A DNA stretch of 64,000 nt, taken from the NCBI RefSeq assembly GCF_053078305.1, contig NZ_CP166879.1; one strand, 5' to 3'. Position 1 is the first letter of the stretch. Every line of letters starts with the position of its first letter. A model generated the notes under the pieces. It did no database searches. It saw only the letters and a program-made list of their open reading frames with translations, and had not been told where the DNA came from. Positions 3,378 to 9,832 of this stretch are shown here, piece after piece. The translations under genes were made by a program, and so were the position numbers.

Positions 3378-3546
3378 GTTCACCTCCGCAGGGAATGCGC
3401 CCGGCAAAGCTCAGTACACAGTCCGGGGCAAGTCTGCGCCGCGCTGACCGCTCATTATCTGCGGTGAGCCTTAACATCACAGGACGGGCATTGCGTTGAC
3501 TGCGGTTGATCGCCGCAAATAACCAGGTACACTTCTGTTTAGCCAT
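3370..3546 (-). CDS. small hypothetical protein (58 aa), first gene of the operon leading to the primase
   Basis: ATG at 3546 preceded by GAGG at good spacing; it is the C-terminal part of the track's 244-aa ORF 3370..4104, whose upstream portion looks non-coding. Confidence 0.35.
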   Translation of the reverse strand: MAKQKCTWLFAAINRSQRNARPVMLRLTADNERSARRRLAPDCVLSFAGRIPCGGEHA

Positions 3547-3621
3547 CTTCGTTACCTCATATAGCGGATTGGTCAGAAGCCCGGTTAGTGTTGCTGCACT
3601 GTCGGGCTTCGCACTCACAAG

Positions 3622-3713
3622 GTGAATCGCACCTTTAATTTTAAAGCTACCCTTAAGTGAATCGCACTTCAAGCTTTTTATTATCATTTTTTTTGCGTAT
3701 ACTGAATCGCACC
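3622..3713. promoter_or_regulatory. three direct repeats of TGAATCGCAC(C/T) in a divergent promoter region (candidate operator sites)
   Basis: Copies read directly at 3622-3633, 3657-3668 and 3702-3713, between the minus-strand operon start (3546) and the plus-strand small gene (3734). Confidence 0.5.
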
Positions 3714-3733
3714 TAACGCGAGGAGATCCAGTA

Positions 3734-3919
3734 ATGGCAACGAGTTCAACTAACAACAAGTCGCAGCAACTTAATGCTCGTTTCCCACATGATGTAGTTG
3801 CAGAATTAGAAAGCAACCTTGAAGATGGAGAAACGAAAGCGCAATTCATTGTTACTGCTGTAAAAGGCGAGATTAAACGCCGACAGCGCAGGAAAAATAA
3901 GCCAGAGCAAGGAAGTTGA
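3734..3919 (+). CDS. small basic protein (61 aa), possible ribbon-helix-helix-type DNA-binding regulator
   Basis: ATG at 3734 preceded by AGGAG; lysine/arginine-rich C-terminus; rho-independent terminator downstream. DNA-binding role is inferred. Confidence 0.55.
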   Translation: MATSSTNNKSQQLNARFPHDVVAELESNLEDGETKAQFIVTAVKGEIKRRQRRKNKPEQGS

Positions 3920-3982
3920 ATAGAGAAGCCAACAGACGTTCTCTCTGGTCCCATGTTAATTTCAGTAAGCGACAATATTTTT

Positions 3983-4016
3983 AAGCCCACAAATTCATTA
4001 TGTCGGGCTTTTTTAT
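3983..4016 (+). terminator. rho-independent terminator downstream of the 61-aa gene
   Basis: GC stem (aagccc...gggctt) followed by a T-run at 4009-4015. Confidence 0.5.
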
Positions 4017-4030
4017 TAGTGATTTTCATA

Positions 4031-4246
4031 TCACTCACCACGAGAGGCATATATTTGCTCTTGAATCCAGTGATCAACTTCGCTTTCAACGAATGAAATT
4101 GCACGAGTTCCTATTTTCACCGGACGGGGAAATGTATTGTTTGCAAGCTGTTTGTAAAGCCATGCCTTGCTACGCTGAACGCGTCTTAATACCTCTTTTG
4201 CTGAGATAAGAGTCTGATTATCTGAAAAGCTGTTTGCATATTCCAT
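4031..4246 (-). CDS. alpA: AlpA-family phage transcriptional regulator / excisionase-like protein (71 aa)
   Basis: Size and sequence character match AlpA-type regulators of P4-like islands; ATG at 4246 preceded by GGAG. Track ORF starts earlier at 4291. Confidence 0.7.
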   Translation of the reverse strand: MEYANSFSDNQTLISAKEVLRRVQRSKAWLYKQLANNTFPRPVKIGTRAISFVESEVDHWIQEQIYASRGE

Positions 4247-4530
4247 CTTGTTACTCCGTGTTCTACTTAAGTTCACGGTGACTTTAAACACTGGGAAAAA
4301 GTGATTCTAGTGATAATGGAATCTATTAAGACAAACATTGATTCTATTGAAAAACAATAATCTCCACTGAAAAAAAGAAGTAATATTCATATGAAAGAAC
4401 ACGGAAAGAAGGAAATGCACAAAACAATAAAATTAATAAAATTCATATAGATAGGATGGAAAATCAAAAAATCATACGTCAAAAGGTATTATTACATTTT
4501 AACGATTCATATTACCTAGGAATTAGCACA

Positions 4531-4560
4531 GTATTACACCGTATTACATCGTATTACCCC
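4531..4560. repeat. three perfect tandem 10-bp repeats GTATTACNNC
   Basis: gtattacacc / gtattacatc / gtattacccc read directly in the AT-rich intergenic region between the 212-aa gene and alpA. Confidence 0.6.
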
Positions 4561-4622
4561 CTATAGCCCCTTAGAGCCTCTTGTGGCCCTTCTATTGAGA
4601 GATAGCCAGAAAATTAATAAAT

Positions 4623-5261
4623 TCACTCTCCGTATTTTATAATGTCTTTCCCCAGCTTTATTTTCTTATAAAACGTAGCTTTTTTAATCCCTTTCATTAG
4701 AATCTCATTCTCATTACAAAAAGAAACAATATCATTATATATAACACTATTATCGCTATAACTTACCTTTCCATGTCTCTTAAGCAATTCAATTAGTAAA
4801 TAAATTAATTTACAACTATAATTATCCTCATCATCTTTTCTGTACTGCCCTCTACCATTACTCCTTAATTTTTTACCAACTTCACATAATTCACTTCCTC
4901 CTAACGTCATTAGAATATCGCTCCAATCTTTATTTTTTACCTGTTGTCGTAATGCGTTCTCAATTCTCTCCTTAATCTCCACAGGTACAATACCTTCCCT
5001 CTGAAAGATATAAGCAGCAGTTAATAATAAGTTCGCCTCCACTTTTTGCGTGGCGGATACGTTTTTATATTCATTAATTAATTGTAGATTTCTGGTTATT
5101 GCCTTTCTTAATCTAATAACCTCTTTTAATTGAACCTCAGTCAATTCATCATTTTCGGTATCATAGTCAAAACCATTCATAGCAAGCGCCACTTCGTGTG
5201 GCGTTATGTAAGTTAACCTATTAAAATAAAACAAATTATTATCAAATTGAGTATTGTTCAT
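4623..5261 (-). CDS. hypothetical protein (212 aa), AT-rich orphan cargo gene immediately downstream of the integrase
   Basis: ATG at 5261 preceded by GGAGAG; clean ORF; visibly AT-rich and rich in K/N/I/E codons compared with flanking core genes; no motif I can recognise. Confidence 0.7.
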   Translation of the reverse strand: MNNTQFDNNLFYFNRLTYITPHEVALAMNGFDYDTENDELTEVQLKEVIRLRKAITRNLQLINEYKNVSATQKVEANLLLTAAYIFQREGIVPVEIKERIENALRQQVKNKDWSDILMTLGGSELCEVGKKLRSNGRGQYRKDDEDNYSCKLIYLLIELLKRHGKVSYSDNSVIYNDIVSFCNENEILMKGIKKATFYKKIKLGKDIIKYGE

Positions 5262-5290
5262 TTAAATCTCTCCGCAGCCCCCAATGGTAA

Positions 5291-6574
5291 TTATTTTCCA
5301 TGCATACGCGCAAAATCATATGGTGTGATAGATCCATTCTTATTAGCATCAATATAATCAGCCCACCATTGCAACATTAATCTTCTTTCTTCAAGATATT
5401 CGGAAGTATGCATATATGAACCTTTCACGTTTTTTCGTTCAACGTGGCTTAACTGTCTTTCAATGGCATCATCATTCCATAGTTTCGACTCACTTAGCGC
5501 ACCACGCGCCATAGTTCTAAACCCATGACCACATACTTCAGTTTTCGTATCATATCCCATTACACGTAAGGCGTTATTTACTGTATTTTCACTCATTACT
5601 TTTTTAGGATCATGATCGCTGGGAAATATAACCTCACCTTTACCACTCAAGGCATGTAAACGTTTAAAAATATCAAATGCTTGTTTGCTAAGCGGAACAA
5701 TATGTTCAGTTTTCATCTTCATCCCACGCTCAGAGTGTTTTACGCCGGGAATAGGCTTACGAATTCCGGGTATTGTCCACTCGCTTCGTTCAAAGTTAAC
5801 CTCACTCCAGCGAGCAAAACGCATCTCACTTGAACGTATAAATGTGAGTAGCGTTAATTCAACGGCAAGCCGTGTCATTAGTCGCCCTTTATAGCGTGAT
5901 AGTCTTTCAAGAAGCTCAGGAATTCTTTTTGGGGGTAGTGCTGGGTGGTGGGTTGCTTTAACGCTTAAAAGCGCTCCAGCCATATCGCATGCAGGATTTG
6001 ATTCAAGCAGGTCATTCTGCACACCAAAACGCATAATTGCGGTTACGCGCTGCATCAGTCGCTGCGCGACATCATGTTTACCTGCCGTATCGACAGCTTT
6101 GATTGGATTGAGAAGCTGGCTGGTTCTCAACGTTCTGGCATCGATTTGACCTATCGAGGGGAAAATATACTGCTCAAGTGTCAGCAGAACACGACGGCTA
6201 TGATCTTCGCTCCAAGTAAGGTTACTTGCGTGCCATTGCCTTGCGATAGTTTCAAATAAATATGCCCCCTCAATTTCAGCTTGTGCCCCCTTTTGCTCAG
6301 CTTTGGGGTCAATACCCTGAGACAACAATTTCTTTGCTGCATCGCGCTTACCCCGCGCTTCAGCCAAAGTGACAGTCGGGTATACACCAAAAGCGAGTCG
6401 ATCTTCCTTTTTGTCAGAGGGGCGGCGATATTTCATGCGCCAGTACTTAGAACCTTTAGGGGAGACCTCAAGATACAAGCCGCCTCCATCAGCCATTTTA
6501 TAAGCTTTCTCTTTCGGCTTTGCGGTCTCTATCTGGCGAGCGTTGAGTTTCATTTTGGGGGCACAAATCCTCAT
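5291..6574 (-). CDS. P4-type tyrosine integrase (site-specific recombinase)
   Basis: 427-aa ORF adjacent to the tRNA 3' end; sequence character matches P4-family integrases. True start may be the internal Met at 6553. Confidence 0.85.
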   Translation of the reverse strand: MRICAPKMKLNARQIETAKPKEKAYKMADGGGLYLEVSPKGSKYWRMKYRRPSDKKEDRLAFGVYPTVTLAEARGKRDAAKKLLSQGIDPKAEQKGAQAEIEGAYLFETIARQWHASNLTWSEDHSRRVLLTLEQYIFPSIGQIDARTLRTSQLLNPIKAVDTAGKHDVAQRLMQRVTAIMRFGVQNDLLESNPACDMAGALLSVKATHHPALPPKRIPELLERLSRYKGRLMTRLAVELTLLTFIRSSEMRFARWSEVNFERSEWTIPGIRKPIPGVKHSERGMKMKTEHIVPLSKQAFDIFKRLHALSGKGEVIFPSDHDPKKVMSENTVNNALRVMGYDTKTEVCGHGFRTMARGALSESKLWNDDAIERQLSHVERKNVKGSYMHTSEYLEERRLMLQWWADYIDANKNGSITPYDFARMHGK

Positions 6575-6717
6575 CGAATTGACATGCCCCCGATTATGCC
6601 CCCAAAAGAGGGTAGACTACAAGAGACCAACAAAGACCATTAGATACCATACTTTACTTGTTTTTTAAGGATTTTTTTGTATTTAGAGACTTCAGGAAAC
6701 GTCAAAAGAAGTGTTAA

Positions 6718-6802
6718 TGGTGCCGAAGGCCGGACTCGAACCGGCACGTATTTCTACGGTTGATTTTGAATCAACTGCGTCTACCGATTTCGCCACTTCG
6801 GC
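6718..6802 (-). tRNA. leuX: tRNA-Leu (anticodon CAA)
   Basis: Reverse complement reads GCCGAAGTGGCGAAATCGGTAGACGCAGTTGATTCAAAATCAACCGTAGAAATACGTGCCGGTTCGAGTCCGGCCTTCGGCACCA, with the CCA end facing the integrase. Confidence 0.95.
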
Positions 6803-8800: not shown

Positions 8801-9832
8801 ATGCAAGTGAAAACACAGTCCTGCGTTGTTGCGGGCAAGAAAACTGTTGCCGTTACCGAGCAGACGATAGATTGGAATAATAATGGAACATTAGTACAAA
8901 TAACCCGAGGTGGAATTTGCGGTTCCGATTTACATTATTATCAGGAAGGAAAAGTAGGTAATTTCATGATAAAGGCACCGATGGTGTTAGGTCATGAAGT
9001 TATCGGTAAAGTTATTCATAGCGACTCATCAGAATTACATGAAGGGCAAACGGTAGCCATTAATCCGTCTAAACCGTGCGGTCACTGCAAATACTGCATT
9101 GAACATAACGAGAATCAGTGTACAGAGATGCGTTTTTTTGGCAGTGCCATGTATTTCCCTCATGTTGATGGTGGCTTTACCCGTTATAAAATGGTCGAAA
9201 CGTCGCAATGTGTCCCTTATCCGGCCAAAGCTGAAGAAAAGGTTATGGCTTTTGCCGAACCTTTAGCCGTCGCGATTCATGCCGCACATCAGGCCGGCGA
9301 GTTACAGGGCAAGCGAGTATTTATTTCTGGTGTTGGGCCCATTGGCTGCCTGATTGTCAGTGCTGTGAAAACACTGGGGGCCGCGGAAATTGTCTGTGCC
9401 GATGTGAGTCCCCGTTCCCTTTCGCTGGGCAAAGAGATGGGGGCGGATGTGCTCGTAAACCCACAAAACGACGACATGGATCACTGGAAAGCGGAAAAAG
9501 GCTATTTCGATGTCAGCTTTGAAGTGTCCGGTCATCCTTCATCAGTGAATACCTGTCTGGAGGTCACTCGTGCACGCGGCGTAATGGTGCAGGTAGGTAT
9601 GGGAGGCGCGATGGCAGAATTCCCAATGATGACGTTGATTGGTAAGGAGATTTCACTCAGAGGCTCTTTCCGTTTTACCAGCGAATTTAATACCGCAGTG
9701 TCATGGCTGGCGAATGGCGTTATCAATCCACTGCCTTTACTGAGTGCTGAATATCCCTTCACTGACCTGGAAGAGGCGCTACGTTTCGCCGGTGATAAAA
9801 CCCAGGCAGCAAAAGTCCAGCTTGTTTTCTAA
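8801..9832 (+). CDS. idnD: L-idonate 5-dehydrogenase
   Basis: 343-aa zinc-ADH-family protein in conserved position. Confidence 0.93.
   Translation: MQVKTQSCVVAGKKTVAVTEQTIDWNNNGTLVQITRGGICGSDLHYYQEGKVGNFMIKAPMVLGHEVIGKVIHSDSSELHEGQTVAINPSKPCGHCKYCIEHNENQCTEMRFFGSAMYFPHVDGGFTRYKMVETSQCVPYPAKAEEKVMAFAEPLAVAIHAAHQAGELQGKRVFISGVGPIGCLIVSAVKTLGAAEIVCADVSPRSLSLGKEMGADVLVNPQNDDMDHWKAEKGYFDVSFEVSGHPSSVNTCLEVTRARGVMVQVGMGGAMAEFPMMTLIGKEISLRGSFRFTSEFNTAVSWLANGVINPLPLLSAEYPFTDLEEALRFAGDKTQAAKVQLVF

Follow-up and report, generated by a model that had tools for sequence, protein, structure and literature searches.

A helically phased repeat array upstream of alpA in a P4-like satellite prophage is a candidate response element for helper-phage Cox/Apl proteins

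The recognition of an active helper phage by its satellite is central to satellite-helper specificity. In the P4 family, helper sensing is known only for P4 and P2, in which Cox acts on cox boxes at the PLL promoter. P2 Cox binds upstream of P4 PLL, activates PLL and derepresses the P4 prophage (PMC3936717), and the note on cox in the P2 GenBank record agrees that Cox derepresses P4. The cox boxes have a spacing of 10-11 bp, with at least six boxes per target and a footprint of at least 70 bp (PMC3936717). In the GenBank record of P4, three tandem 10-bp units (TTAAAGTCA, TTAAAGCCA, and TTAAAGCAA) are labelled 'ori type 2 repeat' at 9176-9205, inside the annotated rep_origin. These units lie 146-175 bp upstream of ORF88 (vis), a gene of the AlpA family, and they agree with the published cox-box consensus TTAAA(G/C)NC(A/C). 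The Cox protein of WPhi uses a different repeat, and it neither recognises the boxes of P2 nor activates P4 (PMC5009727). Recombination directionality factors bind cooperatively to phased direct repeats placed one helical turn apart, and the same motif occurs at att and at the promoters that they regulate (PMC7498355). For instance, three adjacent operators are the minimum for cooperative binding of Apl, and binding to the micro-filament sites of excisionases is cooperative and accompanied by DNA bending (PMC7498355). In the annotated Apl operators of phage 186 the repeated hexamer is TGGCAA, with seven sites at pR-pL and five sites at attP, and their spacing is also 10-11 bp.

The window analysed here is a stretch of 64,000 nucleotides (contig NZ_CP166879.1 of assembly GCF_053078305.1), and positions refer to it unless another record is named. 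The integrase end of a P4-like satellite prophage occupies its first 6.8 kb, and tRNA-Leu(CAA) (6718-6802, minus strand) is the target at which this prophage is integrated. Homologues of int, alpA, an alpha-type primase gene, sid, psu, and delta were found together, according to the RefSeq annotation of an identical element and Pfam searches. The order on the minus strand is int (5291-6553), encoding a P4-family tyrosine integrase with an arm-DNA-binding domain (Pfam PF13356, PF22022, and PF00589), then orf212 (4623-5261), a long gap, and alpA (4031-4246). Beyond alpA there is a convergent YlcI/YnfO gene, the only one of the genes listed here that is not on the minus strand. It is followed by an Icd-like gene, two genes of unknown function, DUF5375, and a TOPRIM-DUF927 alpha-type primase gene that runs off the start of the window. 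In an essentially identical copy (L001), the element goes on with sid, psu, delta, and a PDC-M38 candidate defence pair. The resulting order, int-orf212-alpA...alpha-sid-psu-delta, differs from the canonical P4 order; it is non-canonical relative to the order described previously (PMC8628076).

Several other features of this element and its relatives were also observed. The defence pair of L001 (2284-5368) occupies a cargo hotspot, and PADLOC assigned its two genes to the candidate defence system PDC-M38, as A (745 aa, an AAA ATPase) and B. In another element (L143), the int-orf212-alpA module is followed by a P2-type capsid gene. In addition, three direct copies of TGAATCGCAC are present at 3623-3632, 3658-3667, and 3703-3712, between the Icd-like gene and the divergent YlcI/YnfO gene, and the first two copies lie inside small hairpins (AAGGTG-AATCG-CACCTT). 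This region is possibly a control region for satellite immunity or for an early promoter. A sub-threshold Rfam match to symR (3541-3613), outside the orf212-alpA gap, adjoins it; the tRNA gave the only other Rfam match.

The gap between alpA and orf212 had been described by the first-pass annotation as an AT-rich region of 330 bp. It is indeed AT-rich, with a G+C content of 31% overall and a minimum of 25% in 200-bp windows, compared with 55-60% in the rest of the satellite. However, the start of alpA is at 4246 and not at 4291, judging by RefSeq and by the N-termini of the homologues, so that the gap measures 376 bp (4247-4622). The alpA gene encodes a winged-helix regulator and excisionase of the AlpA/Vis family (Pfam PF05930, E = 1.4e-11; RefSeq), and the protein has 71 aa in the window versus 76 aa in the relatives, with a shorter C-terminus. 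The gap sequence was found in 202 of the 5,426 complete E. coli genomes, and alpA and orf212 accompany it in all of them.

About 150 bp adjoining alpA are conserved in all relatives, and this part includes three promoter-proximal repeats on the minus strand, GATTCTAGTG (4302-4311), GAATCTATTA (4319-4328), and GATTCTATTG (4339-4348). These repeats, which are about 20 bp apart and contain TAGAAT or TAGATT on the alpA strand, are kept in every diverged relative. A conserved regulator, perhaps AlpA itself, may use them as an operator, or they may overlap with the -10 element of alpA. A candidate for this -10 element is TAGAAT at 4303-4308 (minus strand); a consensus sigma-70 promoter was not found on this strand. 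Two further observations concern the gap. A single perfect P2-type cox box, TTAAAGTCA, lies at 4279-4287 on the minus strand, about 35 nt upstream of the alpA start codon. It is identical to the first P4 box and reads TTACAGTCA or TTACAGTGA in the relatives, and about 0.05 perfect matches would be expected in the gap by chance. In strain 873.10 (L003, NZ_CP061754, 5288-6140), IS1 cuts the gap at about window position 4483, and only int, orf212, and the array described below are left.

Three tandem 10-bp units are located in this gap at 4531-4560, namely GTATTACACC (4531-4540), GTATTACATC (4541-4550), and GTATTACCCC (4551-4560), summarised as GTATTACNNC, or GTAATAC on the alpA strand. They had been called perfect repeats, but positions 8-9 differ between the units, and invariance is confined to the 7-bp core GTATTAC and to a C as the tenth base. 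Tandem Repeats Finder reported a period of 10, 3.5 copies, 88% matches, and a score of 49. Only five copies of GTATTAC occur in 25 kb of the element, three of which are these units. The array is also longer than the three units noted at first, since the 10-bp register runs past 4560 with CTATAGCCCC (4561), TTAGAGCCTC (4571), TTGTGGCCCT (4581), and a final TCTAT on the plus strand. These are four more units in the same register, ending at 4595. On the alpA strand this continuation (4558-4595) reads ATAGAAGGG, CACAAGAGG, CTCTAAGGG, and CTATAGGGG, and its units are Cox-box-like. The lag-10 self-similarity of the gap was higher than that of all 500 shuffles. Furthermore, two extra TATTAC hexamers at 4490-4495 and 4510-4515, with spacings of 20 and 22 bp to each other and to the array, may be weak outlying boxes. 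The hexamer at 4490 reads TATTGC in the 96% variants and is thus weakly conserved. The whole array of helically phased boxes upstream of alpA measures roughly 65-100 bp, and it contains at least three short direct-repeat boxes about one helical turn apart (10-11 bp), as do Cox/Apl operators. A binding array for a regulator or excisionase had been suggested here, and the helical phasing indeed speaks for one; the architecture is of the Cox/Apl/Xis type (PMC7498355, PMC3936717).

All contigs with orf212 homologues that we examined have the same arrangement of int, orf212, a long gap (342-510 bp), and alpA, and a 10-bp phased array was present in every orf212-alpA gap examined. The lag-10 periodicity beat the shuffles in 11 of 13 gaps (p <= 0.002, a value inflated by the non-independence of tandem units). 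In the eight gaps in which the periodic region could be delimited, the distance from the promoter-proximal array end to the alpA ATG was 243-285 nt, whereas the distance to the orf212 stop codon ranged from 4 to 207 nt. Thus, the array is positioned relative to alpA. Conservation in related islands, which had been proposed as a check, is found for the phased array at its alpA-fixed site but not for box sequence or copy number. For example, GTAATAC has three copies in the window, two in N9 and in three viral contigs, and six perfect copies in L134. Compared with the window, N9 has one GTATTAC unit fewer and one unit of the continuation (part of 4558-4595) more. The unit GGCTCTAAGG occurs in one or two copies in the family arrays. 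Meanwhile, Erwinia-type elements carry CTATAAGG units (three or four copies in L141), and L140, also of the int-orf212-alpA family, carries three perfect AGATTGCCAC units.

These variants also bear on the proposal that the region encodes a small peptide or a small RNA, which we regard as extremely unlikely. An ATG-initiated plus-strand ORF of 36 codons does exist, at 4456-4566 instead of the 4459-4569 given at first. It is lost in close variants, since strain 5270 has an 8-bp deletion that leaves only 12 codons, N9 has ATT in place of ATG, and every 10-bp change of copy number shifts the frame. It has no Pfam match. For a small RNA, neither an Rfam match nor a terminator-like site was found in the gap, promoter-like matches over 3500-5400 equalled the shuffle expectation (7 found, 7.0 expected), and the RNA folding z-scores were between -0.2 and +1.0 on both strands. 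In short, the region shows neither a conserved frame or structure nor the promoter and terminator of a small RNA or micro-protein gene.

The array also differs from the att sites of the element. It was said to lie about 2.2 kb from the tRNA core and to be an unlikely integrase arm site, and both points agree with our results; the array was measured to be about 2.16 kb from the 3' end of the tRNA (6718), and arm-type pairs sit beside the att core. The attL arm (6557-6650, minus strand) contains four GGTCT-type repeats in 10-bp phase at 6611-6650 (ATGGTATCTA, ATGGTCTTTG, TTGGTCTCTT, and GTAGTCTACC), two tandem copies of GGGGGCAT at 6584-6603, and an inverted TGCCCCC at 6557-6563. Tandem pairs of GGGGGCAT, that is GGGGGCA(T/C), are present on both arms (the attR copy is at about 2075-2100 of L001), and their layout is like that of the P4 arm repeats. 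The att-proximal repeats are conserved in nine relatives despite differing alpA-upstream arrays, and they are likely sites for AlpA and Int, distinct from the array. Thus, the integrase arm-site reading was rejected, because the array is 2.2 kb off the core, the arms hold the GGGGGCA(T/C) pairs, and Int is 97-99% identical between elements with unrelated arrays.

Another candidate binder is the satellite's own AlpA, which is Vis-like and could bind the array for autoregulation of alpA or for control of excision, as P4 Vis does at PLL and attP. AlpA belongs to a winged-helix family of directionality factors, such proteins bind phased direct repeats, and the array is directly upstream of alpA. 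In addition, P4 Vis regulates promoters away from att (PMC7498355; PMC2603039). Nevertheless, residues 13-60 of AlpA are almost invariant where the boxes change completely, between unrelated types such as GTAATAC, TGGCAA, and CTATAAGG. Moreover, these factors use similar sequences at att and at promoters, yet the array motif is absent from both attL and attR, where the repeats are of the GGTCT type. A TGGCAA box also precedes an unrelated Vis-type gene in L266. We therefore consider AlpA an improbable binder. The near invariance of Int and of the DNA-binding part of AlpA, against the changing boxes, makes both proteins, which had been named for binding assays, unlikely to bind here; the boxes of relatives match operators of helper phages instead.

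A replication role was suggested by the P4 record, in which the equivalent repeats bear the label 'ori type 2 repeat' and lie within rep_origin, and the DNA around the array is AT-rich. On this reading the array would consist of origin iterons bound by the alpha primase-helicase of the satellite. In P4, the alpha protein binds the type 1 iterons. The element has its own repeats of that class, at least nine copies of GGTGGAACA/TGTTCCACC in both orientations between alpha and sid (L001 7430-7625), which resemble the P4 type 1 iteron TGTTCACC. The origin or crr is probably marked by these repeats, and none of them is near the array. Thus, the array was rejected as a member of the type 1 iteron class. 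Two Ogr/Delta sites (TGT-N12-ACA) lie upstream of sid, beside this cluster; sites and repeats together take up L001 7287-7342 and 7430-7625. The two repeat classes found side by side in the 'ori' region of P4 are physically separated in the int-orf212-alpA family, where the 10-bp array stays with alpA. Furthermore, L011 and L006 have alpha proteins that are 95% identical, yet their arrays differ. Origin iterons are thus a very unlikely explanation.

The product of orf212, or another satellite protein, might also bind the array, as a centromere-like or regulatory site of an orf212 module. The gene encodes an all-helical orphan protein (PHROG 30524, unknown function), and its homologues fall into 23 clusters, every one enterobacterial. 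It precedes the array in all family members, and it diverges between elements as the arrays do. Its C-terminus (GIKKATFYKKIK) resembles a helix-turn-helix with a recognition helix and is the confidently modelled part of the protein. However, this putative DNA-binding C-terminus is conserved while the boxes change, and the array lies anywhere between 4 and 207 nt from orf212 but at a constant distance from alpA. Equivalent arrays are also present in P4 and in canonical P4-like elements, which lack orf212. In addition, DNA binding is supported by no fold or family: Pfam, NCBIfam, and PADLOC searches gave no match, and neither a Foldseek search of the PDB with the low-confidence AlphaFold model (pLDDT 65) nor a PDB profile search gave a fold match. 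We consider this possibility quite improbable.

The relatives point to binders of another origin. In canonical E. coli P4-like elements, a box segment of about 45 bp is replaced while the flanks are almost identical to P4, and in the three elements described next this segment lies about 140-190 bp upstream of vis. In L269 (NZ_CP038355, an O157:H7 strain), the position of the P4 cox boxes is occupied by ACTGGAAGGG TCTCAAAGGG TTCTGAAGGA. These boxes resemble the WPhi Pe-Pc repeats CCTAGAA(A/G)GGAC, and CTGGAAGGG is common to L269 and WPhi attP. In L267 (NZ_CP024232), boxes of the P2 type (TTTAAAGGCA and TTATAAGGCA) are interleaved with a box of the WPhi type (CTGGAAGGA). Meanwhile, L266 (NZ_CP080070) contains TGGCAAAC boxes like those of 186 Apl, and its array reads AATGGCAAAC GCTGGCAAAC AGATGCAAAT. 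In the int-orf212-alpA family, AGATTGCCA of L140 is a 9-mer that recurs without mismatch in the attP sites of 186. The box types of relatives therefore match switch or att sites of helper phages, namely 186 for L140 and L266, WPhi for L269, and P2 for P4. Two satellite lineages (L140 and L266) have a TGGCAA box in front of AlpA/Vis genes that are unrelated to each other, and this recurrence of a helper-type box points to a trans factor encoded outside the satellite module.

These matches at the same site also argue against a slippage-prone minisatellite without sequence-specific function, which would be at most an intrinsically curved spacer in an AT-rich acquired segment. The copy number does vary (2, 3 or 6) among near-identical elements, with six perfect copies in L134, and neutral slippage also yields such variation. 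Tandem 10-bp repeats with the same core occur by chance in many unrelated genomes and viruses, and no cognate binder of GTATTAC boxes was found in the Cox/Apl-type phages inspected. Against this, the distance between the phased array and alpA is maintained even where orf212 identity is as low as 45-66%, the TATTAC and TAGAGCC cores are spared by the substitutions seen in the 96% variants, and the boxes that relatives carry at this position match known helper operators. A minisatellite of this kind is unlikely in our view.

Instead, we propose that the array is a helper-phage Cox/Apl response element that controls alpA, a variant of the P4 cox boxes. We estimate the chance of this reading, which is drawn from sequence, as slightly better than even. 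The array (4531-4595, with weak outliers to 4490) would be a cooperative site for a small recombination directionality factor of the Cox/Apl class, with one monomer per helical turn on the direct repeats, which would wrap or bend the DNA. The binder would most likely be the product of a P2-like helper phage rather than of the satellite. Once this helper turns to lytic growth, its Cox/Apl protein would bind along the array and switch on alpA; AlpA would then promote excision and downstream functions of the satellite. Satellites would swap or remodel the boxes to fit the helper types that they meet. We infer the binding of a protein, its helper origin, and the activation of alpA from the anatomy of the array, its fixed place relative to alpA, the turnover of the boxes, and the matches of relatives to helper operators.

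We compared the window's own boxes with the known operators. Against the P2 consensus, with the neighbouring units read on the plus strand, CTATAGCCC and TTAGAGCCT score 6/8 and TTGTGGCCC scores 5/8, and the GTATTAC units score 2-4/8. Identity of the units with P2 cox boxes was rejected, since 6/8 matches are frequent across the AT-rich gap and there is no phased chain of at least 7/8. The neighbouring units ATAGAAGGG, CACAAGAGG, CTCTAAGGG, and CTATAGGGG on the alpA strand are WPhi-type-like, and such a phased chain was not reached in 300 shuffles, a count that flatters tandem units for the reason given above. The WPhi-type consensus used here was derived by ourselves from six sites, of which two, the Pe-Pc sites, were located from sequence in the present analysis; the literature gives only the 12-nt Pe-Pc direct repeat (two sites).

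Phased GTATTAC/GTAATAC boxes were not found in the nine Cox/Apl-type switch and att regions inspected (P2, a Cox type with 84% identity, WPhi, Chuche, SEN5, phiT5282H, SW3, ev239, and 186), nor in those of P88 and PSP3. Thus, in the regions inspected, these boxes do not recur at the att site or lysis-lysogeny switch of a phage that might encode the binder. A scan for triple GTAATAC in 100,044 species-representative genomes gave 29 matches, none of them enterobacterial. Scans of viral contigs for GTATTAC-N3-GTATTAC and for triple TATTAC gave only unrelated tandem repeats and the satellite itself. One matched contig (L071) was an unrelated phage on inspection, and tblastn of P2, Cox, and satellite proteins against the matched contigs gave nothing relevant beyond the satellite itself. 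BLAST of the array against 50,697 phage records gave nothing relevant, and a search of viral contigs with a Cox alignment gave only the P2 type and the 84% type, both without GTAATAC boxes. The GTAATAC units may be boxes for an uncharacterised helper factor, low-specificity extension sites of a filament nucleated on the neighbouring units, or recent slippage products. In addition, no Ogr/Delta site (TGT-N12-ACA) occurs in the gap of the window or of any relative. A P4-style late promoter in the gap was rejected for this reason, and the promoter logic therefore differs from that of P4 PLL.

A broader proposal is more tentative, and we consider it possible but rather doubtful. P4-like satellites might carry, in a fixed position upstream of alpA/vis, a swappable 'helper-sensor' cassette that mimics the Cox/Apl operators of the helper. 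The box type (P2-Cox, WPhi-Cox, 186-Apl, or GTAATAC) would set which helper wakes the satellite, composite arrays would hear two helpers, and GTAATAC would represent an uncharacterised specificity class of directionality factors in E. coli. Composite arrays do occur, as the window combines four Cox-like units with three GTAATAC units and those of L267 are interleaved. Our literature search found no description of box swapping in P4-like satellites. If the arrays are exchanged mimics of helper operators, the range of helpers that induce a satellite could be read from sequence in relatives in other Enterobacterales and in those E. coli genomes that match the P4 vis region. Of the 5,426 complete genomes of this species, 1,415 gave such a match, and in 975 it covered at least 80% of the query. 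The proposal, if true, would also explain why WPhi fails to activate P4, and it would provide a simple means of engineering delivery systems based on P4. In the window, what was an orphan intergenic repeat becomes a candidate cis-regulatory element.

Compared with the P4 cox boxes, the window array likewise consists of tandem 10-bp direct repeats upstream of a gene of the AlpA/Vis family. Its Cox-like units, in the plus-strand reading, have the same orientation relative to alpA/vis, and with at least six units it is long enough for filament-type binding. However, the GTATTAC units agree with the consensus at 2-4 of eight positions and their neighbours at 5-6 of eight, and the array lies about 235-300 bp from the presumed alpA start, compared with about 100-130 bp in P4. 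Unlike P4 PLL, it has no adjacent Ogr/Delta site. Furthermore, alpA is followed by a convergent gene and does not head a long left operon as in P4, and the type 1 iterons now lie between alpha and sid.

With the operators of 186 Apl and WPhi Cox, the array shares short direct-repeat boxes at each helical turn, of which at least three adjacent ones are needed. These operators are matched at the homologous site by L140, L266, L269, and L267, whereas the GTATTAC boxes of the window match neither type. Only the neighbouring units CTCTAAGGG and CTATAGGGG resemble WPhi-type boxes (CTAGAAGGG and CTATAAGGG), judged by the self-derived consensus. Finally, the lambda Xis sites X1-X1.5-X2 and other excisionase micro-filament sites at att lie within att beside the core, whereas the window array is 2.2 kb away and a separate phased array is present in the att arm; like those sites, the array is built of phased head-to-tail direct repeats (PMC7498355).
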